From Nemertoderma westbladi (taxonomy: Eukaryota > Animalia > Xenacoelomorpha): DNA of 64,000 nt. Below the pieces are notes generated by a model. It was not told where the DNA came from and searched no databases. It saw nothing but the letters and a program-made list of their open reading frames with translations. The position numbers and the translations under genes are program-made. The stretch is taken from NCBI GenBank assembly GCA_032718475.1, contig JAUCBJ010000179.1, positions 1 through 64,000 on the forward strand, in the 5' to 3' direction. This document shows, one piece after another, positions 1 through 43,447 of this stretch. How positions within the stretch are numbered: position 1 is the stretch's first letter; each line of letters opens with the position of its first letter.

Positions 1-867
1 TATAGAGATTATTGGGAGAGTTAAAGGAATTTGAGTGGTATTTTCCAGAGCATTCTACCAAAACAAAATCAAGCAATCCCAGTTTAACCATCAATCAAAT
101 TTAATACAGACTATATGCAACTTACTACATTATCGTTCAAAATCAGCATGTTTTATTGATATAAAAGGTAGATGAACTGTTTAATTCAATGCTATAGATA
201 TGTACAGGCAGACCAATAAGCTGGGGTGCCGCACCCATATTGTGACACGATAGGTGGGAAGCTCGCCCTATTGGTGAAGGGAAGTTTCCATCAGTTTTCC
301 TAAAAACATAAATGTTCATGTCCAAAAGGATGTTGACTTCACTTCTCTGGGCGTTTCTGTTGGTTCTACAGTAGGTGCCATAAAATACTGTAGCTAATGG
401 AAGAGACACATTGTTTCCTACCGTCAACGTCAACGTCAATCGTCAAGCGTCAAGCGTCAACTTTATCGTTAACGTAAACATCATCGTCAATGTTATTATC
501 ATCAGCAACGTGAACGTCAACGTCTCCGTCGTCATTGCCCTGCGTGGTTGTTGACGTCGTCATCACCGTCATTGTCGTCATGTTGCTTGTTTAACCGTAA
601 AGTGTAACCAGTGTACTTGTAAAAAGTGTCCTCATTATGAAACCAACAAAACTTCACCTATCGTGTCACCCTTCTATTGTGCTCTAGAAAATACTTGTGT
701 ATATGATTGAAATAACTGATATGTCCTTGCCAATCGAACTCAACTTTATTTACAATCTGTGGGGCGGGAACGACGCGTATGGTTCGTGTGTCTTGATCCA
801 CTCCTATCCGACAGAAACGAGACAGTGAAGTCAAAAAGGAGAAGTATCATCACATAATACCATCACA
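1..867 (+). repeat. 5' LTR of element 1 (truncated by the window edge)
   Basis: Matches 9718-10590; differences seen by eye are one CGTCAA unit and at least two substitutions; ends CATCACA. Confidence 0.96.
379..421 (+). promoter_or_regulatory. Predicted LTR core promoter: TATA-like CATAAAA (379-385), putative start at A410
   Basis: CATAAAA begins 31 bp upstream of an initiator-like CA+1TT; start site inferred from spacing only. Confidence 0.55.
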
Positions 868-873
868 AAATAA

Positions 874-885
874 GTAGGAAACAAT
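874..885 (+). other. Non-tRNA primer-binding site candidate of element 1 (GTAGGAAACAAT)
   Basis: No TGG after the LTR; exact reverse complement of LTR 410-421 (ATTGTTTCCTAC). Confidence 0.7.
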
Positions 886-914
886 TCGTCTTCCTAAGGG
901 GGGGCGGATTAACA

Positions 915-3900
915 ATGGAAAAGGTGACAGAGGCGGGTTCGACCAGCGGACCACGGTCACCAGCGACTCCAGAATCACCGACGGCCTGGAGTGAAGAGGG
1001 TCTAGAAACGAGCGGCCCTGGTGTTGGCGTGGTTTCTGAACCAGTAAGTGAATTCCAAACGAGCGTAGGTGTATCTGGTCGGTTGTATGGAGACAAATCC
1101 GAAAAATCGAGGACAATGGTGAGGTCGCCCTCTGAAGAGGAGCTCATAAGAGAAATTGAAGACCTCACTAAAGAGCCTCCACAGCGTGTCAGAACGGAAA
1201 CGGAGCGGAAATCGGGAGGTTCCGCCATATACGGCGAGGGAGAACACTTTCGAAGTACTAAGCCAAAGAGGATGACCAGATCCACCATCGGATTGACCCA
1301 GTTGCCCACGATGGACAGCGGCGAAGTGGAACGTTTGGCTCGCAATTACAGGAAAGCGAGGAACGATCTTCAGGTGTTTAGTTCTGGAGGTAAAGACGAT
1401 TCCAACCTAACTGCAACAGTTGGTAAGGTAAACTTATATATTGCATGGCTGGAGCAATGTGGGCACAGTGAAAGGGCGAACTGTATTGCCACTGAAGTGG
1501 CAGATATTTTAGCTGCCGCTTATCGGCAGAATTTATTTAGTGGAACGTTACATGTAGGAAGTTGCACAGTGGGTGACTTACAAAGTTGGGAGGGTGTAGT
1601 AAGGGTGGCAGACGAAGGGTTGCCCCGCATTTCACCTGAGGACTCCGTGTCCCAGGTGCCGTCTGTCGTACCCAAAACAAAATCGGGGAATTCCGTAACT
1701 GTAAAGCCACACGTAGGCCTATCTTGGACTTCTTCGATGGTAATCAGGGAAGTCGAAAAAATTAACACACAGTGCTTAATTGATAAGCTAGATGCGAAAC
1801 AAATAGCGATAGAAAAAGAGTATGAAAGGGAACGTGTAGCACAAGAAATTGAGGTAGAGAGATGTGAGGCGTTACGTGTGTTAGCCCTAAATAAATTACA
1901 GGCAGATGTATCTGCAAGTAATAGTGATGTGGAAGTTTTGGGTATGTCTAGAAAGGTGACGTCATTAGTTAATGGTAAACATACACAGTTGAGAGATTTT
2001 GAGAATGAAACCATGGGCGTACACACTTTATATCATAGTGATACTGAGGTACATAGAAATAATTACACAAATAGTAGCAGACATCTGCAACATAACGGCA
2101 AACAAAGCAAAGGATATAATCCATCCGTTCCTGTTGTAGGTGTAATTAATGCAGTCGGAGATAAGGTAGAACGTTTCACACCAGCATGTCAAAACATGCA
2201 GGGACTGGGAAAAAACATTGTGAGCATGCATACTGTAGATCCAGGCGTAAGTAATGACCCAGAAAGGCAAGGGACGGCACGCATGGCCAATTTGAATCCT
2301 ACTGCATCAACATATGTGCCTACCAGCCATAAGAAAAAAAAGGTAGGCATGGCCAATGTAAATGTAACGGATTGGGACAGCGGAAATTTCCCGCGATTTG
2401 TCCCACAGCCAACGTTGATGGTTGAAAAAGATGCAGGCAATTATAATATTAATGATGAGTTAAATGATTATGGAACTAACTCACAATTGACTAGGGATCG
2501 CAAGATGCATAGCAGAGGATCTTATGACCCAATTAGTAATGCATTTCCCGATATCAATCATTATCCCACGAACTATAGTTATGGTCCTTTGGGACAAGTG
2601 CGATATCCTGGAACCCATAGGGACACTACCACCCCTCTAGGTAACAGCCAAATTCCTGCAACAAATTATAGCCCCATTGATAATAATTATCGTCCCAGGG
2701 GACAGGTACTGAATCCAGGGCAGAGTGGTGAAGGGACATCCGTTGCGGGACAAACTGTCCCTGTCAGTAGCTACGGTCCCAGGGGGGACCCGGGACTCGC
2801 AGGAATGTCGAGTTTAATGGATTCCTGGAAGATGAAGTTGGATCTACCAACAGTACAGCCGTTTATTTTCGACGGATTAAAACCCGAAGAATATATACAG
2901 TTTAGACAAATATTTTACGATGAAATTCTGTCAATACCACTGTCTGAAACAAAACGTTTAAATTATTTACAAGTCTACACATCTGGTGAGGCCCTTGAGT
3001 TAGTTAGGACATTCGTGGGTCTACCCAATGGCTTTCAAACTGCTTGGGAGGCATTAGAGACACGGTTTGGAAACCCTGGACGTATTATTCAAAATACGAT
3101 AAACAAATTAGTAACAAATTCGACAGTAAAAACACCGAAAGAAATAAAGCAATTTTCAGATAAACTTAATAAAGCTATATTAGTATTGCAAGTTTTGGAC
3201 CGTCCCGCAGAGTTGAATGCGGGAGCAAATATGTTATTAGTAGTGGCTGCATTGCCACTAAACGTACGAAATCGGTGGCGAGATAAATCTGTGAAAATTC
3301 GGTCTAGGTACAATCGAGAGCCGTCAATGCAAGAGTTAGCTACATTCTTGGTGAGTGTAGCGGAATCTATGCAAGATCCAATGTTTAATGAAGAGTTGGT
3401 TGCTGCCGTGAAACCGCCAAGTAAGAAGGTGGAAGTTGTTGCAATTCCGCCACAGCCACACACATCCTCCAACCAACTACCACCTAAGAGGGGAACAGTA
3501 ATGTTTAATAGTGTGGGTGTAGAGAAAACAGATACTCGAAACCCAGCAATGCGAAGTCCTGAAAAACGGGATTTTAATAAAGGCAGTGTCGGTCATGGCA
3601 ATGCATGGGGTAATTATTCCCGGAGAGCCCCGGGATCCAAGGGGATGCAAAGTGAATATGTGCATTATATTAACCCAGCCACCCATGTGTATACGTTGGG
3701 GGCACCATGTCAGATGCACCCGCATATGCGGGGGCATACTACTAACGAATGTCGACTGTGGCGTGCAGTGCCACTTGACACAAGATTTAATTATGCCCGG
3801 CGCCACAATATATGTGGTAACTGTGGCGAACCTGGCCATCTGGCACGGGACTGCAGTAATAATATGCGACTATATGCGAGCAATACTCGCACTATCGTGA

Positions 3901-5210
3901 AGCCTACTGTCTCTTTGACTCAAGGGATGACACCATCATCAGAGACCGTAGCTTCAACTAAGACACATGTAAATACACCATTGGAGCCAAGCAACGCAGT
4001 GGTTGGTACGCTGTTAAGGGGGTCCGGCCACCCTGAAGGAAATAATAAATCCGGATTATTAGTTGTGGGGGATAAGGTGAAACCAGAGTCAGGGGAGTTT
4101 AACCTATTCAATTTAAGCGATAGAGAGGAAGCTTTGGTTCGAGCAAAACGGGGCGTGAAAATGTTACCAGCACCAGTTAATAGTTTGATGCCAGGACATC
4201 GAATGGCTGATCACAACACTTATTTGAAGGTTGTGGTGCTGGCAATCACACCGCCAGAAGGAGCTGGTGTTACTACACTAGCTCTAATAGATAATGGATC
4301 AGCTGTAACGCTCATGGACAAGGACTTAGGAGAGGGAATTGGACTTGTGGGATTCGAACGTCCACTGAATTTGTTGACAGTGGCAACACGCAATAGGGAG
4401 ATTCCAACTACAGTCGCCACATGTCAGCTTAGTAATATTACGGACGCTCCACCATACACCACTTGGTGTACAGTCGCACTCATTAAGGATTTTCACATAC
4501 CAGTGGAAAGACCCTCTCGAGAGGAGTTAGATCAATACACATATTTACACGATATTGATCTATGGAAGTATAAAGTGGAGAATTTGGACATACCGCGGGT
4601 AACCATACTTATTGGAATGGACTGCCCGGCTGCCCATGCACAGTATGAAATTCGAACCGGACCAGAACCAGAGACATCCCCGAGGGCTGAGTTAGGCCCA
4701 TTCGGATGGACAGTGGCAGGTCCAATGGCATCATTACCATCAGTCGCTAAAAATGCCAGGGATTGTGGGATCAGTTCTCCAAATAACTCATTTTGGACTC
4801 AATTTGGAGGTCAGAAGAAAATACTTATAAAGCCTCAATGGGTAGCTGCTGATGCATTTAATGGCTATGTGCATAACCCAGAACGGGATCTAGCCACATT
4901 ATTTGATAGGGATAGTGAAGGCCTTTATGATCCTATGCTAGGTAACTCTCAGGAAGATAAACAGGCCCTTGCAGACTTAGAGGGATCAATTGTACTGAAG
5001 GATGGGCGCTTCACTGCGAGAATGATTTGGAAGGATCCCTCTGCCATACTGCCAAATAATGAGGCCATGGCTAGAGATCGGCTGGCTAAATTAAAGCGCG
5101 CACTTATTCGCAAACCCGAACACAATGAGTTTGTCACAAAGACAATTGAAAAGTATTTGCAGAAGGGATGGGCAATTAAGTTGCCACCAGACGAGCCTGA
5201 CACAACTTGA
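915..5210 (+). CDS. gag: BEL/Pao Gag-protease part of the polyprotein, plus start of RT region
   Basis: 1431-aa ORF; capsid-like region (FDG...LNYLQVYTSGEA...LETRFG); zinc knuckle CGNCGEPGHLARDC; aspartic protease LIDNGS; GPFGW motif. Confidence 0.93.
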   Translation: MEKVTEAGSTSGPRSPATPESPTAWSEEGLETSGPGVGVVSEPVSEFQTSVGVSGRLYGDKSEKSRTMVRSPSEEELIREIEDLTKEPPQRVRTETERKSGGSAIYGEGEHFRSTKPKRMTRSTIGLTQLPTMDSGEVERLARNYRKARNDLQVFSSGGKDDSNLTATVGKVNLYIAWLEQCGHSERANCIATEVADILAAAYRQNLFSGTLHVGSCTVGDLQSWEGVVRVADEGLPRISPEDSVSQVPSVVPKTKSGNSVTVKPHVGLSWTSSMVIREVEKINTQCLIDKLDAKQIAIEKEYERERVAQEIEVERCEALRVLALNKLQADVSASNSDVEVLGMSRKVTSLVNGKHTQLRDFENETMGVHTLYHSDTEVHRNNYTNSSRHLQHNGKQSKGYNPSVPVVGVINAVGDKVERFTPACQNMQGLGKNIVSMHTVDPGVSNDPERQGTARMANLNPTASTYVPTSHKKKKVGMANVNVTDWDSGNFPRFVPQPTLMVEKDAGNYNINDELNDYGTNSQLTRDRKMHSRGSYDPISNAFPDINHYPTNYSYGPLGQVRYPGTHRDTTTPLGNSQIPATNYSPIDNNYRPRGQVLNPGQSGEGTSVAGQTVPVSSYGPRGDPGLAGMSSLMDSWKMKLDLPTVQPFIFDGLKPEEYIQFRQIFYDEILSIPLSETKRLNYLQVYTSGEALELVRTFVGLPNGFQTAWEALETRFGNPGRIIQNTINKLVTNSTVKTPKEIKQFSDKLNKAILVLQVLDRPAELNAGANMLLVVAALPLNVRNRWRDKSVKIRSRYNREPSMQELATFLVSVAESMQDPMFNEELVAAVKPPSKKVEVVAIPPQPHTSSNQLPPKRGTVMFNSVGVEKTDTRNPAMRSPEKRDFNKGSVGHGNAWGNYSRRAPGSKGMQSEYVHYINPATHVYTLGAPCQMHPHMRGHTTNECRLWRAVPLDTRFNYARRHNICGNCGEPGHLARDCSNNMRLYASNTRTIVKPTVSLTQGMTPSSETVASTKTHVNTPLEPSNAVVGTLLRGSGHPEGNNKSGLLVVGDKVKPESGEFNLFNLSDREEALVRAKRGVKMLPAPVNSLMPGHRMADHNTYLKVVVLAITPPEGAGVTTLALIDNGSAVTLMDKDLGEGIGLVGFERPLNLLTVATRNREIPTTVATCQLSNITDAPPYTTWCTVALIKDFHIPVERPSREELDQYTYLHDIDLWKYKVENLDIPRVTILIGMDCPAAHAQYEIRTGPEPETSPRAELGPFGWTVAGPMASLPSVAKNARDCGISSPNNSFWTQFGGQKKILIKPQWVAADAFNGYVHNPERDLATLFDRDSEGLYDPMLGNSQEDKQALADLEGSIVLKDGRFTARMIWKDPSAILPNNEAMARDRLAKLKRALIRKPEHNEFVTKTIEKYLQKGWAIKLPPDEPDTT

Positions 5211-8200
5211 ACATACTACCTTCCTCTTCATGTGGCTGTTGCCATTAACAAAGGAAACAAACCGCGGTTGGTTAACGATGCTGCGGCCAAATATCATGGG
5301 ATGTCATTGAATGACTACCTATTGGAAGGACCTAATATTTATAATTTAGGCATCCATATTTTATTTAGATATCGTGCGGGAAAATTTGCCTTCACAAGTG
5401 ATGTGGAGGCAATGTTTCACCAAATCAGAGTGTATCAGGAAGACAGTGATAGCTTGCGTTTCTTGTGGCATGATCATGACGAACCCAATGCTGAACCAAA
5501 CAAGTATAAAATGATCGTGCACATGTTTGGTGCAAAGTGTTCACCTTGTATTGCAACACGAGTTATGCGTGAGTCGGCAAACATGGCTCCAGCTACCATT
5601 AGCGAACAGGCCAAGGACATGATTCGTAATGAGTTTTATGTAGATGACGGCCTAAAATCAGGTAATAGTGAAAAAGGTCTTGTAAGATTAGCCCTTGATG
5701 CTAAACTATGTTTAGCGGGGGGAGGGTTCAACCTCACAAAATTTAAATCGAACAGTGCGTACTTCATGGAACAGATGTCAGAAGAAATATCGGTTACAGT
5801 GTGTAAACAGGACAATGTAAGCGGGAGTGAACAGGAGGTGTCGGCGCAAGTAACAGGTGAGATGCCAGACAGGGTGCTGATGGATCATCAGAATGCTGGA
5901 CAAGATGGACGAGTCTTGGGCATCGCCTGGAACCGAGTTAAGGACACCTTAGAGTATGTCTTTCAACCAGACAAGGACATGCAACATACAACAAGGGCCT
6001 ACTTATCCTTCATCGCAAGGATTTATGATCCACTGGGACTGGTTGCGCCGAACATGGTTGTAGGGAGGCATATCCTCCGGGATGCATATTTAAGCAAGTG
6101 TGAATGGGACGAAGGGCTACCGGAGGAGTTAGTAGTTAGGTGGAAAGAGTGGTTGGTGGCCCTGGAGGATCTCCAGCGGCTCGCAATACCTAGGGTTTAT
6201 TTCCAGGATGGAGATATGTCCAGTATAGAGATGCATGTGTTTTCAGACGCATCCTCTAAAGGGTATGGGGCGGTGGTGTATTTAAATCAAATGAACACTA
6301 CGAACCCTCCACGGATAGTATACAGTAAAGCAAGAACCGCCCCATTAAAGGCAGTAACCATCCCACGTCTAGAATTAATGGCAGCCCTAATAGGAGTGCG
6401 AGTGGCAATTCAGGTAAGAAAGGCATTGGGGTGTGTGCTATCATCACACTACTGGACAGATTCAACAACAGTGCTCCGGTACATCCAGAATGATGCACGT
6501 AGATATAAGGTATTTGTGGCTAATCGGGTTGATGAAATCCGAGCCACAACATGTTTGGACCAGTGGCATTATTGCCCAACCGAAATCAATCCAGGTGACT
6601 TAGTGTCACGCGGTAGCCTAGAGGTCCCCTTTCTAGAGAAGGAAGCCTTATGGCAGCACGGACCCACTTTCTTGAAGAATGTAGCTGAGTGGCCCTTGTT
6701 CCCAGATTGTAAAGTGATAGATCCAGGGAAGGATGTATGCAAGGACCCTGAAGTTAGAAATGAAATGGTGTTTCATACTATCATATCTAACAGTGTGGGA
6801 GATGGAATAGTGCACATTAGTCCCACACAGAGGCTGTTGACCTACAGTGGATCCTGGTATACCACATGCAAGCGTGTGGCATATATTAGGGCCCTGGTCC
6901 AATTCCGTCGAACAGGTAAGACCAGTAAGCCAATTATAGATGTCAAGAGTGCCGAGAATGGTATCATTCGATACCTTCAGAGGAAAGCATATCCCGAAGA
7001 AGTACGACGACTTCTTGAAGGCAAGAATATTCCTCAACGTAGCACACTCAGGAGGTTGTGCCCATTCCTAAACAATGGAATACTCACTATGGGTTCTCGA
7101 CTGAAACACATGAGTGAAATACTAGGGGCAACCACACCCATCATATTACCCAATGATCCAGCAATAATCGGAAGTATTGTGTGGGACATACACACTACAG
7201 TGCTGCATAGTGGCATCAACGCCACATTGGCTGCAGTACGTCGCCGATTCTGGATACCATCATTGCGAAAGTTAGTCAAAGGTATAGTAAAGTCATGTGT
7301 ACGGTGTCGCTATGTGAGACGAGAAAGGGTGGTGCAACAGATGGCACCACTCCCAGTAGAGCGGGTCACTCCATATTTGACGCCATTCACTTACACTGGA
7401 ACCGATATGTTCGGACCTTTGATGGTTAAGGTGAAACGCCATATGGAGAAACGATATGGTTTGATATTCGTTTGCTACAACTCAAGAGCTGTGGCACTTG
7501 AGTTGGTACAAAGTGCAACCGCAGATGCATTCATCAATGCTCTGAGACGATTTACGTGTCGTTATGGAGCTGTTAGGAGGATGCATTCCGACAATGGTGG
7601 TAACTTTGTAGGAGCAGAGAAAGAGCTTAGAGAAGCCAGGATCACATTGGCGAGCTCTGAGGTGACCAACTCAGTGCGAAAAAAGGGTGTTGAATGGAAA
7701 TTTCACACGCCTTATGCCCCACACACTTCAGGGGTGTGGGAGCGAATGATCGGTACAGCAGGCAGACACCTCCGAGCCATCGCAACAGATCATACGGTCA
7801 CAGAAGATGTATTGCGCACAATGTTTGCGGAGGCAGAGGCGGCTATGAATAGTCGACCACTATGCGCGGTGGATGATGACCCAGAGTCGTTTGAGGTTAT
7901 CACACCGAGTCATCTATTGAATCGACAGCCAGCACCTATTCTAAACAGGAGTCTGTGGGGAGAGAGCGACATCTATGCAAGGAGTGCATGGACCGTAGTT
8001 CAGGCTCTTTCTAAGGAGTTCTGGAATAGGTGGGTGACAGACTACTTGCCCATGCTGCAAGAACGCAGTAAATGGCACAAACCCCAAAGAAACTTGCATG
8101 TAGGGGACTTAGTCATTGTGACAGACGGTACATTGATTAAAAACAGTTGGACAATGGCTAGAATCGCTAAGTGTTATCCAGGAACGGATGGATTGGTTCG

Positions 8201-8288
8201 TTCCGTTGAGGTGTACCTGGGAGACAAGTCGGGCAAGACATACAAGCGTTCAGTGGGCAATTGTTGTCTACTGGAGCAGGTTCAATAA
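5211..8288 (+). CDS. pol: BEL/Pao Pol (RT, RNase H, integrase); same frame as gag, separated by one TGA
   Basis: YYLPLH, DVEAMFHQI, MFGAKCSP, FYVDD; RNase H HVFSDAS, IPRLEL, WTDS; integrase H-H-C-C, DMFGP, SDNG, GVWER. Confidence 0.95.
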   Translation, partial: TYYLPLHVAVAINKGNKPRLVNDAAAKYHGMSLNDYLLEGPNIYNLGIHILFRYRAGKFAFTSDVEAMFHQIRVYQEDSDSLRFLWHDHDEPNAEPNKYKMIVHMFGAKCSPCIATRVMRESANMAPATISEQAKDMIRNEFYVDDGLKSGNSEKGLVRLALDAKLCLAGGGFNLTKFKSNSAYFMEQMSEEISVTVCKQDNVSGSEQEVSAQVTGEMPDRVLMDHQNAGQDGRVLGIAWNRVKDTLEYVFQPDKDMQHTTRAYLSFIARIYDPLGLVAPNMVVGRHILRDAYLSKCEWDEGLPEELVVRWKEWLVALEDLQRLAIPRVYFQDGDMSSIEMHVFSDASSKGYGAVVYLNQMNTTNPPRIVYSKARTAPLKAVTIPRLELMAALIGVRVAIQVRKALGCVLSSHYWTDSTTVLRYIQNDARRYKVFVANRVDEIRATTCLDQWHYCPTEINPGDLVSRGSLEVPFLEKEALWQHGPTFLKNVAEWPLFPDCKVIDPGKDVCKDPEVRNEMVFHTIISNSVGDGIVHISPTQRLLTYSGSWYTTCKRVAYIRALVQFRRTGKTSKPIIDVKSAENGIIRYLQRKAYPEEVRRLLEGKNIPQRSTLRRLCPFLNNGILTMGSRLKHMSEILGATTPIILPNDPAIIGSIVWDIHTTVLHSGINATLAAVRRRFWIPSLRKLVKGIVKSCVRCRYVRRERVVQQMAPLPVERVTPYLTPFTYTGTDMFGPLMVKVKRHMEKRYGLIFVCYNSRAVALELVQSATADAFINALRRFTCRYGAVRRMHSDNGGNFVGAEKELREARITLASSEVTNSVRKKGVEWKFHTPYAPHTSGVWERMIGTAGRHLRAIATDHTVTEDVLRTMFAEAEAAMNSRPLCAVDDDPESFEVITPSHLLNRQPAPILNRSLWGESDIYARSAWTVVQALSKEFWNRWVTDYLPMLQERSKWHKPQRNLHVGDLVIVTDGTLIKNSWTMARIAKCYPGTDGLVRSVEVYLGDKSGKTYKRSVGNCCLLEQVQ

Positions 8289-9706
8289 AACGTGAGTTGC
8301 AGTTCGGGGGGAGGGAAGTATATTATGAATATTTCCCTGGAGAATGCAAGTGTAGTGCATTTGAATGAAATTAAATATTTCTGGATAGACTCAAGGTCAC
8401 CGTCGTTTGACAATGAGTTTAAGAAAGTCAGGCAAGGTACTGTATTACCTCAGTAGTTAGGTTAGTAATGAGGTTAGATTACTAATGATTAAATAAGCAT
8501 TGAAGTGCAAATGCATGCATGCGTCTTGAGTGAATGAGTGCATATTAAATGTTAGCATTATAATTCGGGTGGCGGCTGATTTATGGGCCATAGAATGTGT
8601 AAATCGCTTATAATAAAATAATAATTTACGCGTATGTAAAATAGAGTAGTGAGAAGAATCCGAATGTGAGAACGCAACGTAGCGTTAGATGTAACTTGGA
8701 TAAAAATTCGTATTATGGAGGAGCTGCATGTAATCTAGTATTTCGTATTTAAGTACATACAAACAGTGGTGGTCCGGTGACTAATACCGTACAATTTATT
8801 TCGATTGGCAAAATTAGGACATGAAAGGAACAGATGGAAACAAACTATCCCACAGGGGGATTGTTAGTGCTATTTAGCATGAACATATATTTTTCATTTT
8901 CATGATTGCAGATATTTTAACTCAATGGTGTGAACATAACATAGTAACATATATAGCCAGCTGGAAAGTGTTCAATGTTAGTGCATTATTTATTCGTATT
9001 TGTGCGCACATATACGCACGAGTAATGGACAAATCACAACAACAGACCAGTTTATACAAACAAGATAAATGGGCTATTACAATGCAGTCATTGTTTCCGG
9101 GTGCAGCTTGGCGAACTGCGTCCTACAATCACAGCCACAAGGGGTTCACGCAGGCAGCGTCAACTTCTGATTACCGGGACCGCATATATCTAAGGTACAT
9201 AAACATTCGTAAGACCTAGTGGGCGCACAAACTACCGGTAGACATTTCAGCAGTGACCACTGGGTAGGGTACGTATGTGATAAGTAACGGGTAGGCGGTA
9301 ACGAAGCGTCCAGGCACTCAGAGTGCTGGGCAAGGTGACCATGTGGTGTACGAGTGCTGGATGCATCACCACATGGAACACAGGATTTAGGGTTATGTTT
9401 GAGTGCGTGAGTAGGTGGGCATGAGGAAATGCCCGTGGCCAAGCAAAGCGTTGCGTGAGAGGTGCATTAAGTCGGTGTGACGATCTGAAAAAGGGTGGGC
9501 ACCGATGGCGTCAACGAAACCTGATGGTACTATTAAGCACATCAGATGTCTGAGGGCGTAGCGACTGTAGTTAGCCCCTCAGATTAATTCTAGCAGTGTC
9601 ATTCGGCGACATTGCGTCAAACTTAAACGTAAGTTGATCGTGTAGAAAGGAGAAGTGTAAAAGTTTATGTTAGTGGTGTGGATATTTCATATCCACACGG
9701 GGGGAG

Positions 9707-10590
9707 TGTTGCGGGAGTATAGAGATTATTGGGAGAGTTAAAGGAATTTGAGTGGTATTTTCCAGAGCATTCTACCAAAACAAAATCAAGCAATCCCAGT
9801 TTAACCATCAATCAAATTTAATACAGACTATATGCAACTTACTACATTATCGTTCAAAATCAGCATGTTTTATTGATATAAAAGGTAGATGAACTGTTTA
9901 ATTCAATGCTATAGATATGTACAGGCAGACCAATAAGCTGGGGTGCCGCACCCATATTGTGACACGATAGGTGGGAAGCTCGCCCTATTGGTGAAGGGAA
10001 GTTTCCATCAGTTTTCCTAAAAACATAAATGTTCATGTCCAAAAGGATGTTGACTTCACTTCTCTGGGCGTTTCTGTTGGTTCTACAGTAGGTGCCATAA
10101 AATACTGTAGCTAATGGAAGAGACACATTGTTTCCTACCGTCAACGTCAACGTCAACGTCAATCGTCAAGCGTCAAGCGTCAACTTTATCGTTAACGTAA
10201 ACATCATCGTCAATGTTATTGTCATCAGCAACGTGAACGTCAACGTCTCCGTCGTCATTGCCCTGCGTGGTTGTTGACGTCGTCATCACCGTCATTGTCG
10301 TCATGTTGCTTGTTTAACCGTAAAGTGTAACCCGTGTACTTGTAAAAAGTGTCCTCATTATGAAACCAACAAAACTTCACCTATCGTGTCACCCTTCTAT
10401 TGTGCTCTAGAAAATACTTGTGTATATGATTGAAATAACTGATATGTCCTTGCCAATCGAACTCAACTTTATTTACAATCTGTGGGGCGGGAACGACGCG
10501 TATGGTTCGTGTGTCTTGATCCACTCCTATCCGACAGAAACGAGACAGTGAAGTCAAAAAGGAGAAGTATCATCACATAATACCATCACA
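9707..10590 (+). repeat. 3' LTR of element 1 (884 bp)
   Basis: Starts TGTTGCGG directly after the PPT; ends CCATCACA. Confidence 0.96.
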
Positions 10591-10631
10591 CAAATAACCC
10601 ACAACACTGCAATTCACCTCAAACCCAACAA

Positions 10632-11780
10632 CTACTACTACTAGGATCGGCATGCTGCATTGCAGCTGCATTTTTAAGAATGCGGTGCCGGCTTATTGAC
10701 AAAATTGCACTGCCAATTTGCTAGATCATCCGCATCTTCAAGAAAATCATGGGCCACCATGCTTATTCACTCCATGAGGCTGCCAAAGTACAAGATTATG
10801 CACTGGCTGGTCCTCACGGCGAAAGCAATGTCCTGCAAAGCGGAGGCGATTTTGTTCTAGTGTCAAGCTTAAGGGAACCAATGAGACACCTCCAATGTTA
10901 TATAGTGTCTGGTTAGAAATGTGTGCATTGTACTTTACACAATGAACTCGGCATAGCATTCTTGTGAATGTGCCATCCAGAGATTTGGTGTCCTCAGCAG
11001 TTAGAGCCCAGCATGTACTCCCATAGAGGAGTACCGGAACTACTGCTGCTCTAAATAATCGGACCTTAAGTTTCCGATTAATTCGTGGTGACTTCCAAAT
11101 CCTTGAACGCCTATTCAAGGCTGCCCATGCTTTTCCCTTACGTATTCGAAGGTCTTCACCTGACTTTCGAATCCATGATCCCAGGTAACAGAAGAAAATT
11201 TTGGTCTCATTTTGATCCCATATAATGAAACTATGCTGAACATACGTGAGCCAGAGACTGAATCAAAGGCCTTGAAGAAGACAACAAAGATAACAGCCAG
11301 GTGCCTGTCTTTCTTTTTTGATAACTCTTCAATTATCCTTCTAAGTGCCAAAATGGGCTCCATGGTCCCACGACCTTTATGGAACCCATTCTGATTTCCA
11401 CGGAGCAGTCTCTCAATGGGATCCCTGATGCGATTTAATATAATTCTATTGTTTAGCTTTGCAGCAATCGAGATCAATGACATTCCCCGAAAAGAACCAT
11501 AGAGTGTTAGGTTGCCTTTCTTGGGAACTGGCACCAACTTATTTGTTTTCATTTCTTGTGGGACTCTTGTTGTTCGGTACATGTCTACTATTGTGGGATA
11601 GATGAGCTTTAAACACTCAGGTATTTTAAAGACCTCAGGGGAACACCATCTACTCCACTGGCACGATTGGTCTTAATGCTCTTTGCAGCAGCCTTCACTT
11701 CTGCAAAGGAGATATCGCCAATGTGAATATCTGGGAGTACAGACTCAGACACGTTTACTTCTATAAAGTTATCAGGCAAT
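10632..11780 (-). mobile_element. 5'-truncated, internally deleted RTE-like LINE with (TAG)n tail
   Basis: RT fragments (VPVPKKGNL...FRGMSL, QNGF, FFKAFDSV, VLLYGSTCW, RLRFAGHC); 3' part matches 17506-18361; candidate TSD CCAACAAC at 10625 and 11781. Confidence 0.88.
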
Positions 11781-16964: not shown

Positions 16965-18851
16965 ACCGATATGACCACAGCCGAAGCCAGTCTAGCGCGG
17001 TGTATGACCCACCGTGTGTGGGAGACTGAATTCTATGGCAGAGAGAGGGGTAGGCTACTTTGTATTATTCGATTGATCTCTACTATATAATCTCCAAAAA
17101 CTATGTTTATTTTCAGGGAAATACCAGCAGTTTCTTTCAGGTGCTGCGCTTTAAATACCACGCAGAGTTACGACTTATACTAATTACAACGGGTGGATAT
17201 GAGACTGCACAATGTTTAATTATAATTAATTAATTAATTATAATGTATAATTATAATAATTCGCTCGCATTCACACAACTGGCAATAGTACTGAAACACG
17301 CTAATTTGCCGACTGTCACCAATTTTACTCGCATATAAGGAGAAATTTAGCTTACGTACGTTGGGGGCTATGAAACAGCATGAACTCATGCAAACCACTC
17401 TAGGCTATTGTGACTAGTATTCCCCTCCGCTTACCTCAATAAAACAAGAAAGTCAAGAGAGATACCGGTTATTCGTAAGTATTCTCCAAATATTAGCCGT
17501 AATCACAGTCGAGGAAATCCTGCCAAGTACCTAACTGATCTAGACTTTGCTGATGACTTAGGAGTACTCTCAGAATCACTAGAGGGAGCGCAACGGCTCC
17601 TCAGCTCATTAGAACATGCTGCTTCTAGTGTTGGTCTTTTTATTAACTCCAGAAAGACCAAAATTTTGACAGTTAACTTTGAAAGTCCTCAGCAAGTCTC
17701 TGATCGGATGAGCATAAGCTCAAAGGATGGTATGCTTGAGCATGTGGACGACTTCTGTTACCTGGGATCATGGATCCGGAAGTCAGGTGAGAACCTTCGA
17801 ATGCATAAGGGAAAGGCATGGGCAGCCTTGAATAGGCTTTCCAGGATTTGGAAGTCACCGAAAATTAATCGGAAACTTAAGGTCCGATTATTTAGAGCAA
17901 CAGTAGTTCCAGTACTCCTCTATGGGAGTCCATGCTGGGCTCTAACTGCTGAGGACACCAAATCTCTGGATAGCACATTCACAAGAATGCTACGCCGGGT
18001 TCATTGTGTCAAGTATAATGCACACATCTCCAACCAGACACTATATAACATTGGAGGTGTCTCATTGGTTCCCCCAAGCTTGTCACTAGAACAAAATCGC
18101 CTCCGCTTTGCAGGACATTGCTTTCGCCGAGAGGACCAACCAGTGCATAATCTTGTACTTTGGCAGCCTCATGGAATGAATAAGCATGGTGGACAGCCCA
18201 TGACTTTCTTGAGACGCATCTTAAAGGACACTGGCCTTGAAGATGCGGATGATCTAGCAAATGTCATGGGTGATAGGGAGTTGTGGCGGTGCAATTTTTT
18301 CGATAAGCCGGCACAGCATTCTTAAAAATGCAGCTGCAATGCAGCATGCCGATTCTAGTAGTAGCCGTAATCAAATAGGTTACAAACACAGTATTATAAC
18401 AATAATAAACAATATAAGTTACGCGGTGTGTGGCATTTAATCATCTGTCAGAATTTTAGTGAGGTATACGGTATGAGAGTACGAGAGAGATAATTTATTG
18501 TGTTTTATAATTCTCTGGCACTCTAGCCACGGATGGATGGTCTTTGGGCAAAGTCAGAAATGTCAGAATGAATGATTTCGTCACATTACGGTATACATAT
18601 GTAAACAAAGAATTCGCAAAGTGAAAATCGCGATGATTGAACGAAATATAACAAAATATAACACAGTCTCTACGCATAATGAAACAGCTGGAAAATTTCG
18701 TCATGTTAGTTCTGGATTAAGACAGACGCGTAGTTGCATAAGTTGATACTTCCTCCAACACCTTAGTTGGCCTTTTTAGAGTAGTTCGCGAATTGCACAA
18801 AAACGCCACATTTTTGCCGCAAATGCTTTAACAGGACAAGGTCTGTTTACA
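16965..18851 (-). mobile_element. Solo LTR B (one end truncated), interrupted by a LINE
   Basis: Colinear with 12015-12454 plus 15889-16447; ends GTTTACA; left boundary approximate. Confidence 0.72.
17506..18361 (+). mobile_element. 5'-truncated RTE-like LINE with TSD
   Basis: DLDFADDL RT motif and 219-aa C-terminal ORF (FCYLGS, VLLYGS, RLRFAGHC); (TAG)n tail; TSD TAGCCGTAATCA at 17494-17505 and 18362-18373. Confidence 0.92.
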
Positions 18852-30790: not shown

Positions 30791-30894
30791 TGGGGCGAGC
30801 CACGAAGTTGGCGGAGCCTTAGCGAATTGACACTGTTAGGGGGTGGGTCAATTTATGCAAATAGTTGTCGTCGTCGTCGTCGTCGTCGTTGTCG

Positions 30895-30926
<32 letters not shown>

Positions 30927-32058: not shown

Positions 32059-32361
32059 TGTTTTATTGTGTGCGGTAAGTCATTCCATAATTTTATGAGT
32101 TGGGTAGTTAAGCTGTAGTGCCCAAACCGGTTGTTAGTCCTTGGTAGTTTAATATTAAGGGTGCGTCTGTTAAGTAAGTCATCCGTGGTTGTATCTGGTA
32201 GGTAAGGAAGATTTAGATGTTGGAATGGGATGGATATGTGGGGCGAGCCACGAAGTTGGCGGAGCCTTAGCGAATTGACACTGTTAGGGGGTGGGTCAAT
32301 TTATGCAAATAGTTGTCGTCGTCGTCGCGAGCCACGAAGTTGGCGGAGCCTTAGCGAATTG

Positions 32362-33647
32362 TGTACGCGCTTTTATAGACCTTCAGCAGTTTAACCTGCC
32401 GAAATTTATATGTCTTTATTGATAAACTGCCTTTTATAAGATGACAAGATTTAATACAAAAACAAACCAAAAACATTAGCCGAAGCCAGTCCATGCGCGT
32501 CCAAATGACCCGTTTATAACACCGGGAGACTGGATTCGTGGGCTTAAATTTATTTGCGGTCAAGCCTACTGTATTATTCGATTGATTACTAATATATAAT
32601 CTCTGACAAATATTATTCACTTTCGGGAAATATTAGCAGTTCCTTTTAGGACGTGGCGCTCTACCTATGTAAACAGAGTTATGACTGATACTACACACAA
32701 CGATATGGCTTAAATTTCAAGCATAGGGCGCATTCTTTAGGAATGCTTTATTATCAGATCCAATCACTTTACAATCACGCACGCTACCGGTAACGCACAA
32801 CACTGCTCACTGATATGCCGACAGTTACTGACTTTGATCAGGTATAAAGAGATATGCACTGGACTCAGGTAGTGTCTGTCAAACAACATTAGATTCACTA
32901 CAAACACAATAATAAAGTCGCAATTGTTGTACATAACCTTTCTCTCTAACCTGTAGTGTATCAAAGATATTGGGAAAATGTGGGTTGATTATTGATATTC
33001 TTCAACTAATAACATCCAATTATACTGATACAAAATTACAAACAGTAAAAGCAGTATGACGGTAGGTTAAGATACAATTAGATTGCAAGTGCAAATGAGT
33101 CGAATTGAATTGAATTGAGTCGGATCAAATTGGATCAAATGGAATTGATAATAGCTATGCTTTCTATAATTTAGCCTACTAATGTTCTTATAAAAAGGCA
33201 GAAACATTGCGTCATTCCAGCCGATCTTCAGGCAGTATGGAACGACATAAACACTGAGTTTGGGAGCTGCTGTAGGTATCTCTTCAAGGAAAACGCAAAT
33301 CACCCTGATTGGTTGTTAGACCAAAAACAAAGGAACCAGGAGTCCAATGAGAGCTCCCTCCACGTCATCATCCAGCTGGGAGATGTCGTAATCAGAATCC
33401 TTCCCTTGACATAGTGACAATGAAATGCCGCATTGCGGGTTGTGTACCCTGCTACGTCCGCATAAAGCACACATTCAGAAGAATCTATTTTATGTCCGTT
33501 AAAAACACTTATACAGCACCCCGAGGGCTAGGGGATCCAATTATATCTGTAAACGCTTTTACAGCAGGTTTCAGAGTATTTCAGCGTATGGGGGAAAAAC
33601 TGGATCGCGGGGCGAAGGACCAGTTGCATCCCACAGAAGCTTTTACA
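32362..33647 (-). repeat. 3' LTR of element 2
   Basis: Direct repeat of 42162-43447 at offset 9800. Confidence 0.96.
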
Positions 33648-36658: not shown

Positions 36659-39600
36659 TTACGTGATGGAGTCCCTAGATATTTGTCGAATTAGGGAAGT
36701 GGTCGTAGGAAGAGTATCTTGCCTTCCATGGTTTCCGGACAGTTTTCGGTCTCTTCCCGGTAAACCTAAACGACCAGCTGGGCGATTAGGCCGTCGTGAT
36801 ATTTCCTCCGCTCCCTTGGCCTGTCTAATCTCCGCCGCGGCAAGACGAGGAGGCCATTCTTCTTCTTCTTTACTTAGGGAGTCGGGTCCACCCAACCAGC
36901 CGGGAGTATCTATCCGTTCTTGAGGAGTTACTCCTCTGGAAGCGATGTCGGCTAGATTAATCGTCTCGGGTCGATGTCTCCATTGATCTACATTGGAGTT
37001 GATATCGTCGCTATCTGAGGAGTATGTTGTTCCCTCAGTGGCTTCGTCCACCTCACTGCTCTCCTCTTCCCAAGCTTTTACTTGAAGTATCCGGTCTTGT
37101 GGCAGTCTTTCTTCAAGGGTTCTGCGGGAAGGGCCAGTGAAGTACCAACCTACTCGAGTTCTTACCGCATAAGGTTGTAATGGCTGCGGTTGAGCAGGCC
37201 GTTTCTCTAACGTCTCGAGCGCCTCATGCGCGTTTTGGCCGATAAGGATTTGTACTCCAGGATAATCAGTTTGGAATCGAGGTATTCCCAAATGTTGGAT
37301 GTTCTCGTCCTCGTCCCAGTCATAAGGTTCTACTTGAGTAGTAGCGAAGTTCTTTATTGCCACCATTTTTACTGACTCTATACTTTGTTCCCCTAATTTA
37401 TCCTGTGGAGTGGACAATGCGCCGATATAATAATCTGCCATTAAGGTAGATTTCCAAACCTGCATAATTCCGGACATATTTAACTTAGTTCGGAATTTGG
37501 GTTGTCCAGCAAAAATATCCTCGGCTAACTCCTTGTCGATGAATGTTCCGGTGCTACCTGAGTCAAGGAGGGCGTTCACTATGTAACTTTTGTTGGGACC
37601 GTGAACTCTTACCTGGACTACCGGAAATTCTCGTATTCCTATGTTGGATGTTGGAGTTTTCCGAGATGGTTGCTTGTCCAAGGAGGTTGATGGAAACTCC
37701 GTGTCGTTATCCTTTTCGTACGTAAGTGCTCGATACACTGCGGTGTTTATTAGATAACAGGATTCGTTGGCATCAGAGAATTCGTCAGTATAGAATCCTT
37801 CCCACTCAGAACTTTGGTCAGTGTCGTTCACATCACTGAATTGGACATGTGATTTGGGCTCACTTACCTGACTCGGGTGGTTTCGTTCGAATTCTGTGTG
37901 CAATAAGCTATGATGTTTCGCGCCGCACTTAGCACACCTTGCGTTATAGTAACAGGTTCGCTGCTGGTGTCCGCGTCTGAGACAGTTAGAACACAACCGC
38001 TTATCCCACAGGACTCCACGTCTACCTGCCAGGGATTTCTTTAGGAATTCTGCACACACCCTCAAACGGTGGGGCCCGTCGCACAGCGCACATTTTGGTT
38101 TGATGTTACTCACTTTAACTTGGGCAATGTTATGCACTTTGGTTCTTTCTTCGGGCTTTCTTACCTGAATTCTTTTGGGAGACTGAGGAGGGGTCTTAGT
38201 GAGCTTGTCTCTCCTATCATTGGTTCGAGGCCGGTATTTACTTACGTCTCTCAGGGTTTTGTGGTCATCGTAAGATCTTGCTGTGTCTTTCCCGCTGTCC
38301 TCTTCATGGGAGGTCTGGCTTTCGCCGTCGTCAGTATAACATACGGGTATTATTCTTTTCCTAGAAACGGGTTTTTCACTTACCTGATTTTCCGATGTTT
38401 TTTCCCTGGATTGCTTTATTAGTTGTAGTTTGACCTCACGGTCTAGGAATGACATGAGATCCGCCATGGTGGGGCTCCGTCGTTGTTGCTCCATCATATA
38501 CAACACTTTCTTGTCCCAACGTGTACATACTCCCCCCTTTGGCAAAGTAGAGACAATGGCTCCGATAACCATGGAACTCTGATATTCATGGGACTTACCT
38601 AACCAATCCAATTGCCTACAGATTTCTTGAATCTCATCGGAAAACTCTATAATCTCGTTACTAAAGAACTTTCGGGGAGCTACCAGTTTTGCATACAAAT
38701 ACTTAGCGATGTTATCCTTATTACCATACCTGATGTTTAGGGTATCCCAAACTTGTCTTAATCCATCTGGATGTCCAATAAACTTTAACGCCATTAACTT
38801 GGGAGATCCTTCCAAACACTCGATGAGGTATCTAAGTTTCTCTCCGTTAGATAGCACAGAGTTCTGTATGTTATCTTTGTAATATTCATTAAAAGGTAAC
38901 CATTTCATCTCATCTCCATTGAATTTGACGATTTCTCCCTCTTTGACCGCTTGGCGGGCTTCTGTTCTAGCCATTTGACGCGTAAAGCTTTCTTGGGCCA
39001 TCGTGTTATTAAATATCGAATTATCGGTATATAAATTTCTCGAATTATTATCAGGTCTATAGGGAATATCATTACCAACAGGTTTATAATCTCCCTTAAT
39101 AGGGTTTACTATAGGAGTTTCTACTTCGCTAGCAGTATATACGCGTGTAGGCGACACACCTTGCGCATGATATACTTCAGACCTAACAGGTTGACACATG
39201 GTTACAGGGGGTGTTTCTACTTCGCTAGCAGTATATATGCGTGTAGGCGACACACCTTGCGCATGATATACTTCAGACCTAACAGGTTGACGCATGGTTA
39301 CAGGGGGTGTTGGTATACCCCTTTGTAAATTTACTAACTTATCGCATTCTGACGCGATACTCTGTTGCACCTCTTGCAATGCTAACCTACTTTCCCTTAC
39401 TGTGCCCTTGAACTGCTTAACAGTCTCTTCCAACTCCCGGACCTGCTGGGAGGAGCACAAACAGTGTTCCCTCAGCTGCTCGAGCAGGAGACCCATCTCC
39501 CGTCGCCCCTCAGCTACCCACTCGACCGCCGAAGCGGGAGTCGCCAACGTAGTGGCGGGCGAGCGAGAGACGACGGGCGATAAATTCTTGATATCATCTC

Positions 39601-40057
39601 GCTCGGCGTCCAGGATGGGTTCAGACTCGGGAACAGTCCTACTGGGCACAGGTATTTTAGTACTGTGCAAAGGGAATTTGGTAGTAGGTTTGGGAAGTAC
39701 AGGTGTCTCTATCACCGAAGGGGTGTTTTCGAGAACAGGCCTAATTATTTCCGGTTCATCTACCATAGTAGGGAGTCTGCTTACGGTAACATTTCGGTCT
39801 GTGGGTTCTGTACTACCTACGGCTGTGCTAGCTAGTTGTCTTCCAACAGCTGGAGGCAAATCAGGCAACTTCCGACGGGGAGACGTTCTGTTACGCCTAC
39901 TGAGACGAGATCTATTTCCTCCACCTTCGGGATCTTTTATATCACCTTCATCGGAGGAGGCAAATCCCTGTCTTCTGATTTGTCTCCTCAAGTCTGCTTC
40001 TGCCACTGCCTCTGCCGCTTTTCTTTCCGCTTCTGCTGTTGCCATTGCCTCTGCCAC
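36659..40057 (-). CDS. gag: BEL/Pao Gag-protease with a short residual Pol motif; no RT, RNase H core or integrase
   Basis: KFNGD...KLRYLIECLEG; three knuckles CALCDGPHRLRVC, CSNCLRRGHQQRTC, CAKCGAKHHSLLH; LLDSGS; TRVGW; then QWRHRPETINLADIASRG...WLGGP...EEWP. Confidence 0.93.
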   Translation of the reverse strand: MAEAMATAEAERKAAEAVAEADLRRQIRRQGFASSDEGDIKDPEGGGNRSRLSRRNRTSPRRKLPDLPPAVGRQLASTAVGSTEPTDRNVTVSRLPTMVDEPEIIRPVLENTPSVIETPVLPKPTTKFPLHSTKIPVPSRTVPESEPILDAERDDIKNLSPVVSRSPATTLATPASAVEWVAEGRREMGLLLEQLREHCLCSSQQVRELEETVKQFKGTVRESRLALQEVQQSIASECDKLVNLQRGIPTPPVTMRQPVRSEVYHAQGVSPTRIYTASEVETPPVTMCQPVRSEVYHAQGVSPTRVYTASEVETPIVNPIKGDYKPVGNDIPYRPDNNSRNLYTDNSIFNNTMAQESFTRQMARTEARQAVKEGEIVKFNGDEMKWLPFNEYYKDNIQNSVLSNGEKLRYLIECLEGSPKLMALKFIGHPDGLRQVWDTLNIRYGNKDNIAKYLYAKLVAPRKFFSNEIIEFSDEIQEICRQLDWLGKSHEYQSSMVIGAIVSTLPKGGVCTRWDKKVLYMMEQQRRSPTMADLMSFLDREVKLQLIKQSREKTSENQVSEKPVSRKRIIPVCYTDDGESQTSHEEDSGKDTARSYDDHKTLRDVSKYRPRTNDRRDKLTKTPPQSPKRIQVRKPEERTKVHNIAQVKVSNIKPKCALCDGPHRLRVCAEFLKKSLAGRRGVLWDKRLCSNCLRRGHQQRTCYYNARCAKCGAKHHSLLHTEFERNHPSQVSEPKSHVQFSDVNDTDQSSEWEGFYTDEFSDANESCYLINTAVYRALTYEKDNDTEFPSTSLDKQPSRKTPTSNIGIREFPVVQVRVHGPNKSYIVNALLDSGSTGTFIDKELAEDIFAGQPKFRTKLNMSGIMQVWKSTLMADYYIGALSTPQDKLGEQSIESVKMVAIKNFATTQVEPYDWDEDENIQHLGIPRFQTDYPGVQILIGQNAHEALETLEKRPAQPQPLQPYAVRTRVGWYFTGPSRRTLEERLPQDRILQVKAWEEESSEVDEATEGTTYSSDSDDINSNVDQWRHRPETINLADIASRGVTPQERIDTPGWLGGPDSLSKEEEEWPPRLAAAEIRQAKGAEEISRRPNRPAGRLGLPGRDRKLSGNHGRQDTLPTTTSLIRQISRDSIT

Positions 40058-41319
40058 CTTCCTTTCAAGACACTGTCCAAGTCTAATTTTGTTTGTACAG
40101 TTGAATGCCTACTGCTATATTACAGCTAAAGCAAGTCTAGTAATTCAGTAAGACTGTTGGCCTAGTACCGGCAATTAACTACAATATATTAGGATACCGG
40201 TATACACTTATAGTATATATAAGTATTGCGGGCTAGGTTTGTTACAGAGTACCGGTATATAATTTCAGTACAAATATATACAAATATATATTAAGCCTAT
40301 TATAGATACCGGTATATCAATTATTTAGGATAGTTGAATTTCTGAAATTATAAGGTTACTTAGTTACTTGAGTTTACTCTATTACCGTTATTCAAGCAGT
40401 AGTCCAACTGATATTGAGACCTAATTGTTGTATGATAGGCCTACTGGTTTATAAATCTTTTGAGTTGATTTATAATATATATATACCCTGATAAGGGGTT
40501 TGTTACAAGATTGAAATAGGTGTTACTATTTCTGGGAAATATCACTACACAGAAGCTGTGCGCTTTCAGTGAAGTGCTACTTAGTGGACACTAAAACGAA
40601 TAATTCTACTGGCCTAAGTTACTTATCTACTAATTACGTAATATATGGTTGAGATTACAATCTCTAATAAACACACAAAACGGTACGTACAGATTTTTAG
40701 GGCAATTTTACAGGGAAACTACTAACCAGTCTAACAAAGGGTTAGAACTTCTGGCTATTACAACGAACAGGATACTACGGTATTTGAAAATAATAAGTAG
40801 AAGTAAATACTGCGTTGTCTAGATAGGAAAGTACCACCGCCTGACGACCTACAGCCGTATCGCTATAGGTACAACGTTATGTATCTACGGAGTGTTCCTA
40901 CCTAGAAGTTAATTACCGCCGTCTACCAGAACGAGCGTGCCTATTAACCACTTTACAACACAATAATGCCTACACTAATTACTTTCGGAAAGCACTGTAC
41001 ACTAAACCCTAAATTAGGTACAGGTACTTGTAAAAACAGATAACCAGTAGTTAAATATACTTGAACAGTTAAAAGAACCACAGCATCTGCTGGAGTGACC
41101 GGGGCACTGAGTCACCAGTCTTTACCTACGCCAAGCAGCCCGTGTAGTACTGGGGTTAATTTAACTATAACGGTATGTATAACAAACACAATTACTGTAG
41201 GAATAAACTTGGGGACATGAATGTTGCGAGTAATCGCATAAACTCTGAATAATAAATATTACGCTACCCGTACAGAATACTCAAATAAAATACAAACCGG
41301 ATGCTGACCAACTACCATT

Positions 41320-42150: not shown

Positions 42151-42161
42151 ATAGCTATTAT
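42151..42161 (-). other. Non-tRNA primer-binding site candidate of element 2 (ATAATAGCTAT on minus)
   Basis: Abuts the 5' LTR; no TGG; exact complement of LTR 42958-42948 (ATAGCTATTAT on minus). Confidence 0.72.
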
Positions 42162-43447
42162 TGTACGCGCTTTTATAGACCTTCAGCAGTTTAACCTGCC
42201 GAAATTTATATGTCTTTATTGATAAACTGCCTTTTATAAGATGACAAGATTTAATACAAAAACAAACCAAAAACATTAGCCGAAGCCAGTCCATGCGCGT
42301 CCAAATGACCCGTTTATAACACCGGGAGACTGGATTCGTGGGCTTAAATTTATTTGCGGTCAAGCCTACTGTATTATTCGATTGATTACTAATATATAAT
42401 CTCTGACAAATATTATTCACTTTCGGGAAATATTAGCAGTTCCTTTTAGGACGTGGCGCTCTACCTATGTAAACAGAGTTATGACTGATACTACACACAA
42501 CGATATGGCTTAAATTTCAAGCATAGGGCGCATTCTTTAGGAATGCTTTATTATCAGATCCAATCACTTTACAATCACGCACGCTACCGGTAACGCACAA
42601 CACTGCTCACTGATATGCCGACAGTTACTGACTTTGATCAGGTATAAAGAGATATGCACTGGACTCAGGTAGTGTCTGTCAAACAACATTAGATTCACTA
42701 CAAACACAATAATAAAGTCGCAATTGTTGTACATAACCTTTCTCTCTAACCTGTAGTGTATCAAAGATATTGGGAAAATGTGGGTTGATTATTGATATTC
42801 TTCAACTAATAACATCCAATTATACTGATACAAAATTACAAACAGTAAAAGCAGTATGACGGTAGGTTAAGATACAATTAGATTGCAAGTGCAAATGAGT
42901 CGAATTGAATTGAATTGAGTCGGATCAAATTGGATCAAATGGAATTGATAATAGCTATGCTTTCTATAATTTAGCCTACTAATGTTCTTATAAAAAGGCA
43001 GAAACATTGCGTCATTCCAGCCGATCTTCAGGCAGTATGGAACGACATAAACACTGAGTTTGGGAGCTGCTGTAGGTATCTCTTCAAGGAAAACGCAAAT
43101 CACCCTGATTGGTTGTTAGACCAAAAACAAAGGAACCAGGAGTCCAATGAGAGCTCCCTCCACGTCATCATCCAGCTGGGAGATGTCGTAATCAGAATCC
43201 TTCCCTTGACATAGTGACAATGAAATGCCGCATTGCGGGTTGTGTACCCTGCTACGTCCGCATAAAGCACACATTCAGAAGAATCTATTTTATGTCCGTT
43301 AAAAACACTTATACAGCACCCCGAGGGCTAGGGGATCCAATTATATCTGTAAACGCTTTTACAGCAGGTTTCAGAGTATTTCAGCGTATGGGGGAAAAAC
43401 TGGATCGCGGGGCGAAGGACCAGTTGCATCCCACAGAAGCTTTTACA
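42162..43447 (-). repeat. 5' LTR of element 2
   Basis: Upstream of gag on the minus strand; direct repeat of 32362-33647. Confidence 0.96.
42948..42992 (-). promoter_or_regulatory. Predicted LTR core promoter: TATAAGA (42992-42986), putative start at 42958
   Basis: TATA begins 34 bp upstream of CA+1T; start site inferred from spacing only. Confidence 0.5.

Follow-up and report, generated by a model that had tools for sequence, protein, structure and literature searches.

How does a retrotransposon start reverse transcription when the site that follows its LTR does not match the end of a tRNA? This question is raised by a BEL/Pao element, here element 1, at the left edge of a 64,000-nt stretch of DNA from Nemertoderma westbladi (assembly GCA_032718475.1, contig JAUCBJ010000179.1, positions 1 to 64,000; henceforth the window). 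According to the ICTV description, the Belpaoviridae have a primer binding site (PBS) of 18 nt which is complementary to the 3' end of tRNA-Arg or tRNA-Gly; BEL/Pao replication is called poorly understood in the same source (PMC8742986). An earlier note, made from the letters of the window alone, had proposed that element 1 dispenses with a tRNA and primes with the 5' end of its own transcript.

Element 1 is a young BEL/Pao (Belpaoviridae) retrotransposon (Table 1). Its anatomy fits this superfamily, i.e., LTRs, gag plus pol in the order PR-RT-RH-IN and a polypurine tract (PPT) ahead of the 3' LTR. The domain hits comprise PF05380 (Peptidase_A17, 'Pao retrotransposon peptidase', E 3e-43), PF03564 and PF18701. 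The best pol matches, at 34-38% identity, are all listed with PF05380. A membership in the Tf1/sushi group, with its Ty3/gypsy chromovirus-related pol, was ruled out as the pol is that of BEL/Pao. The gag-pol frame is interrupted by a single in-frame stop (5208-5210). A comparison of the LTRs (1-867 against 9718-10590) reveals 2 substitutions and one indel of 6 nt. With LTRs this nearly identical the copy must be young. The 5' target-site duplication lies beyond the window, like the first 11 nt of the 5' LTR. The LTR end at 867, as given in the earlier note, agrees with the terminal CA and with one contig which has a loose end at this position. The boundary is not clean, since loose ends at 871 occur in contigs of the element 1 family from 3 of 4 sequencing runs. 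Further, the 3' flank (10591-10597) is similar to the 5' spacer at 868-873 (CAAATAA). A/T-rich target sites, or spacer bases which are retained now and then, would account for this likeness together with the breaks at 867 and 871; the breaks may mean that integrase trims the end of the cDNA to a variable extent. Family contigs from two runs also contain a joint of 415 to 467. Right after element 1 follows a very high-copy short repeat (10630-11200) with a summed contig depth near a million; it recurs at 17752-18364 on the opposite strand.

Table 1. Coordinates of the features of elements 1 and 2 in the window.
Element	Feature	Position	Strand	Remarks
1	5' LTR	1..867	+	first 11 nt beyond window edge; ends in CA
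1	15-nt arm	242..256	+	complementary to 655-669 (predicted U3 with R/U5); -28.3 kcal/mol
1	Imperfect arm	333..363	+	complementary to 808-834 (predicted U3 with U5); -33.7 kcal/mol
1	TATA-like CATAAAAT	379..386	+	6/8 consensus positions, weak
1	Candidate self-primer ATTGTTTCCTAC	410..421	+	predicted RNA 5' end
1	Predicted pretzel segment X	766..775	+	pairs with 887-895, just 3' of PBS
1	Predicted pretzel segment Y	777..790	+	pairs with LTR end 851-866
1	Spacer AAATAA	868..873	+	6 nt, LTR end to PBS
1	Non-tRNA PBS GTAGGAAACAAT	874..885	+
1	gag-pol	915..8288	+	DUF1759, CCHC, RT, Peptidase_A17, H2C2/rve integrase, DUF5641
1	Polypurine tract	9699..9706	+	directly before 3' LTR
1	3' LTR	9707..10590	+	TGT...ACA
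2	3' LTR	32362..33647	-
2	gag-protease frame	36659..40108	-
2	Non-tRNA PBS ATAATAGCTAT	42151..42161	-	adjoins LTR without spacer
2	5' LTR	42162..43447	-	1286 nt, identical to its 3' LTR; 5-nt target-site duplication
2	LTR segment pairing with leader 3' of PBS	42350..42365	-	15 bp, one bulge
2	Candidate self-primer ATAGCTATTAT	42948..42958	-	LTR positions 490-500
2	TATA-like TTTTTATAAGAA	42985..42996	-

The region behind the LTR has no tRNA-type site. TGG is absent from 868-900, as the earlier note had observed, and the 12-nt complementarity which it reported is exact: ATTGTTTCCTAC (410-421) is the reverse complement of GTAGGAAACAAT (874-885). ARAGORN predicted no tRNA gene in the 64-kb window. 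In a shuffle test a 12-nt match which starts 0-7 nt past the LTR was obtained in 3 of 10,000 Markov-shuffled LTRs, a figure that is too lenient because the shuffles contain fewer inverted repeats than this LTR; thus, the weight rests on the replicates described below. The inverted-repeat search of the LTR also returned one 15-nt and one 11-nt pair. With a transcription start at 410, the two long arms (242-256/655-669 and 333-363/808-834) could, according to the modeled pairing, bring the 3' U3 of the RNA together with the 5' end and so help it to cyclise for strand transfer. Long-range complementary LTR pairs of this type were not seen in element 2. Variants in contigs of the element 1 family (40 of 44 rows) number 0 in 410-421 or 874-885 and 39 in 498-809, yet the absence of variants at the PBS says little because the depth there is low.

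Element 2 is an independent replicate of the same layout with unrelated letters. The LTRs of elements 1 and 2 share no similarity, and their gag sequences are 28% identical over 155 aa. The first 11 nt past the LTR of element 2, which are without TGG, are the exact complement of its own LTR positions 490-500. This candidate primer is located 34 nt downstream of a TATA-like run. The match was equaled in 18 of 10,000 shuffles. Element 2 is an internally deleted BEL copy; gag and protease were detected in it, and a search for RT and integrase returned neither. For both elements a primer assembled by intron removal was considered and rejected, the best split matches being 7 and 8 nt. Element 2 sits in a tandem-like repeat of about 1.4 kb, of which 30825-32063 and 43448-44668 match at 98%. 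Elsewhere in the window an uninterrupted frame of 319 aa (28195-29154, minus strand) encodes an mL44 endonuclease-like domain (PF22935); a homologue search with this frame returned none at E 1e-40. From 46529 onward a satellite array with at least 119 overlapping matches and a 95-bp period is present.

An alignment of 37 homologues with the pol of element 1 led to 119 BEL/Pao loci in metagenome and MAG assemblies, on contigs which are evidently of animal origin. Thirty-nine of these animal loci (L081-L119) are on contigs listed under bacterial or archaeal genomes, i.e., host DNA resides inside these MAGs. A search for relatives in viral contigs yielded none, and a second search of genome contigs added nothing new. 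Direct repeats around pol are present in 49 of the 119 loci; L054, L077, L093, L095, and L113 were dropped from these as not being LTR pairs. The 3' end of the LTR is readable in 25 loci. In six loci the region searched extended from the end of pol to the 3' LTR end and includes some non-LTR DNA.

Eleven of the 25 loci, belonging to 6 families, are of the tRNA type with a conserved TGG(T/A)CC site. They share one PBS sequence (TGGTCC...GAGCCGGAT), whether the contig is beetle-associated or marine. None of the 11 (0/6 families) matches its own LTR over at least 11 nt, and no such match exceeds 7 nt. One of these tRNA-type BEL families (L105-L110) has LTRs which end in TA instead of CA, with target duplications of 5 nt. 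The sites without TGG present a different picture: the sequence varies from family to family, and the only LTR which a site matches is its own. Nine of the 14 non-tRNA relatives match their own LTR over 11-15 nt, two of them contiguously (L097 and L014, 11 nt each) and seven across a GT-AG intron. Five stay below 11 nt (L078, L104, L111, L115, L027), with L104 at 10/11 by eye. Thus, in the comparison across relatives which the earlier note had suggested, the complementarity is kept with different letters in nine loci. With the two window elements included, the elements that lack a tRNA-type site number 16, and 11 of these have an own-LTR match of at least 11 nt. When leaders are aligned against the LTR of another element this length is attained in 1 of 336 pairs, and windows 40-168 nt further down the leader attain it in 2 of 216. 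The own-LTR match is real and beyond chance. The spacer of element 1, a caveat in the earlier note, is mostly not an obstacle, as 0-7 nt separate CA and PBS in the relatives. Target-site duplications confirm LTR ends with spacers of 4 nt in L097, 4 nt in L119 and 7 nt in L100, the latter of the tRNA type.

A blind scan was carried out with 18 further loci for which the LTR end is not known. Two of the regions were empty, and two loci are near-duplicates of loci already counted. Matches emerged in 12 of the 18 versus 3 in a reversed, not complemented control. L037 has a spliced own-LTR match of 13 nt. No own-LTR match of at least 11 nt was present in L032, L047, or L053; by eye, L032 has a 10-nt match which spans canonical splice sites. 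L053 is the nearest relative with upstream DNA, and this DNA contains no recognisable 5' LTR.

The predicted introns deserve a closer description. They are located in the LTR region of L018, L024, L051, L083, L094, L096, and L118, are 76-697 nt long, and begin with GTAAGT (three times), GTGAGT, GTAAGC, GTACGT, or GTAAGA. Their removal would yield the complement of the PBS. L014 carries the joined, intron-free sequence in its 3' LTR (6900-7103) and a splice acceptor at the same point in a partial 5' LTR (1-330); this is either an intron loss within one family or a chimeric contig. To judge from their sequences, elements 1 and 2 are intron-free forms of a clade in which the majority needs an LTR intron removed to generate the primer sequence.

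In a mixture-model tree of 22 of 64 rows, for which the root was assumed, element 1 is in a clade with 100/99 support together with 8 self-complementary relatives. None of the 6 tRNA-type rows is inside this clade. L013, which has a spliced scan match of 14 nt, is outside of it in an open fork. The position of element 1 is provisional because of its long branch (2.09; best identity 40%); FastTree and a fast LG+G4 tree leave it unplaced (support 0.38 and 63).

The self-priming proposed in the earlier note is thus supported at the level of sequence by element 2, by the family-specific matches in relatives and by their absence from tRNA-type relatives. That the RNA of the element itself is the primer in some form is very likely. 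By analogy to Tf1, element 1 probably uses the 5' end of this RNA, nucleotides 410-421, and not a tRNA. Transcription would start at or just before 410, as suggested by a weak TATA box and by folding. The segment 410-421 is predicted to pair with 874-885, to which it is complementary. This duplex may be flanked by the predicted helices 766-775/887-895 and 777-790/851-866, resembling the Tf1 pretzel. If Tf1 is a guide, the RNase H of the element would cut after nucleotide 12, i.e., after 421, and RT would extend the freed 3' end from 873 through the spacer into U5. Finally, integrase would trim the spacer back to CA, which is consistent with relatives that have spacers of 4-7 nt and LTRs ending at CA.

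The start site is the point at which another form of self-priming competes. The RNA may start well upstream of 410, and 410-421 may be freed by a cut on its 3' side alone or be supplied in trans by the 3' LTR copy or another RNA molecule. The TATA-like box was placed by the earlier note 31 nt before 410. This position holds (CATAAAAT, 379-386), but the box is weak: scored against the TATA consensus TATAWAWR, a match as good is located 22-36 nt upstream of 29% of the positions in the element 1 LTR, which leaves room for an upstream start. On the other hand, a TATA-like box precedes the candidate primer by 31-34 nt in both window elements. In 12 elements taken jointly TATA-like matches are mildly enriched at -22 to -36 (p=0.022), and the A+T content is highest around -25. 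An upstream start is favored by the spliced relatives, in which just 3-9 matched bases precede the intron donor; were the match the RNA 5' end, the first exon would be very short. Likewise, in element 1 the strong pairings use 242-256 and 333-363, upstream of 410, and 399-404 is also able to pair with 889-894 (-8.5). Against this, folding with a program which excludes pseudoknots recovers the primer duplex for RNA starts at 405 or 410 (mean pair probability 0.63-0.99) and loses it for starts at 300 or 330 (0-0.08). The duplex is missing from the minimum-energy fold in several windows, and a local hairpin at 883-910 (-14.3) competes with it (-14.8). On balance, an internal primer is unlikely.

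The flanking helices of the preferred model, priming by the RNA 5' end, were examined separately. Under a strict test for adjacent X and Y helices, with windows set post hoc, 1 of 400 shuffles was as good as element 1. A looser test of element 1 was not significant (p 0.23 and 0.55). In element 2 the strict test was not significant either (11 of 100 shuffles), and its leader stem attained p 0.02. Among 9 testable relatives the strict test was significant in none.

Alternatively, a host RNA such as a tRNA half or fragment or another small RNA might prime, and the LTR match would then serve a structural role, e.g., in PBS shielding, packaging or translation control. Priming by tRNA-Arg or tRNA-Gly is after all the description of the Belpaoviridae (PMC8742986), and half-tRNA priming is known in copia lineages (PMC6317226, in the part available). 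Yet TGG is absent from both window elements, and tRNA-type relatives keep a single PBS sequence, whereas the non-TGG sites are family-specific and match the LTR of their own element alone. This makes a host RNA primer quite improbable. The least credible explanation, which hardly merits consideration, is that the match arose by chance or remains from an inverted duplication, the LTR being rich in inverted repeats. Two other long inverted pairs do render the shuffle null too lenient. But element 2 and 9 of 14 relatives carry a match at this position with other letters, seven of these relatives exactly across canonical splice sites; of the 216 leader control windows 2 attain 11 nt; and the contrast between own and foreign LTRs (11/16 versus 1/336) largely refutes this explanation.

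With Tf1-like self-priming of element 1 as the preferred reading, a broader proposal can be made, to which we incline by a modest degree. A large BEL/Pao clade from marine animals and fish would have given up tRNA priming, and self-priming would have arisen independently once more, in addition to its origins in Tf1/sushi and the TAR copia elements. In most of its members the spliceosome would join two LTR pieces into the primer, and elements 1 and 2 would represent intron-free forms with a Tf1-like layout. The LTR intron could survive, as the primer region would not be copied from the 5' end; strand transfer would restore it from the 3' LTR. If true, a self-priming BEL/Pao clade would correct the family description of priming by host tRNA (PMC8742986), and tRNA-free priming would be convergent in a third LTR superfamily. 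Such elements would, as we infer, escape control by tRNA supply or by 3' tRNA fragments, and their absence from the output of annotation tools which require a PBS would be accounted for. Where intron-free and splice-dependent forms coexist, priming would be linked to the choice of start site and to splicing; Tf2 is regulated by start-site choice (PMC5341516, available part). For each family the proposal yields a sharp test, namely a single predicted start nucleotide together with a single predicted primer of 12 nt.

Self-priming has been demonstrated in Tf1, and proposals of it exist for Tj1, Tosmo, Tcn1, and TAR copia, as far as the accessible portions of the sources go (PMC7175516; PMC4600332; bioRxiv 10.1101/2022.12.06.519325; PMC6317226). 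Predictions of it are not confined to the Tf1/sushi group, from which alone the earlier note knew it: the available part of PMC6317226 predicts it also for Tcn1 and TAR-lineage copia elements. The available parts of PMC3601003, PMC5443660, PMC5445492, and PMC6934838 mention self-priming without BEL/Pao. Term searches of the main texts of PMC554778, PMC3118150, PMC6238403, and PMC2774666 returned no discussion of the PBS. We found no report of BEL/Pao self-priming in the openly accessible literature searched; the PBS tables which accompany BEL/Pao surveys (PMC3118150, PMC6238403, PMC8556966) and entries in Repbase or GyDB may contain an earlier one.

How does element 1 compare with the known systems? 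Tf1/Tf2 from S. pombe, Tj1, and Tosmo/Tcry, all of the Tf1/sushi group (Ty3/gypsy, Metaviridae), likewise have no tRNA PBS but a post-LTR site of 11-12 nt which is complementary to the LTR (PMC7175516; bioRxiv 10.1101/2022.12.06.519325; accessible portions). In Tf1 the first 11 bases pair with the PBS and RNase H cuts between 11 and 12 (PMC7175516, accessible portion), and three duplexes are required (bioRxiv 10.1101/2022.12.06.519325, accessible portion). Two helices like those flanking the Tf1 duplex in the pretzel are predicted as possible in element 1 and are not general in its relatives. Unlike Tf1/sushi, element 1 belongs to a different superfamily, marked by Peptidase_A17, DUF1759, and DUF5641, and has a 6-nt spacer. 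Tf1 is without an LTR intron, whereas most BEL/Pao relatives need one removed to form the primer sequence. Start site and cleavage are established for Tf1; their counterparts in element 1 are derived from sequence and analogy. For Tcn1 chromoviruses and the TAR copia elements Houba and Osr-1 self-priming was predicted from sequence as well, by a comparable criterion, i.e., at least 10 nt complementary to the LTR and starting 0-5 nt after it (PMC6317226, available part). These are fungal and plant elements of other superfamilies, and the match of element 1, which starts 6 nt after the LTR, is just outside the 0-5 nt range. With the tRNA-primed Belpaoviridae (Semotivirus; Bel, Pao, Tas) element 1 shares the LTR-gag-pol-PPT-LTR anatomy, the pol order and the domains. 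Their 18-nt tRNA PBS (PMC8742986), however, is absent in elements 1 and 2, and the tRNA-type relatives branch outside the element 1 clade. What is new is best read as a known mechanism, Tf1-like self-priming, in a superfamily described as tRNA-primed.
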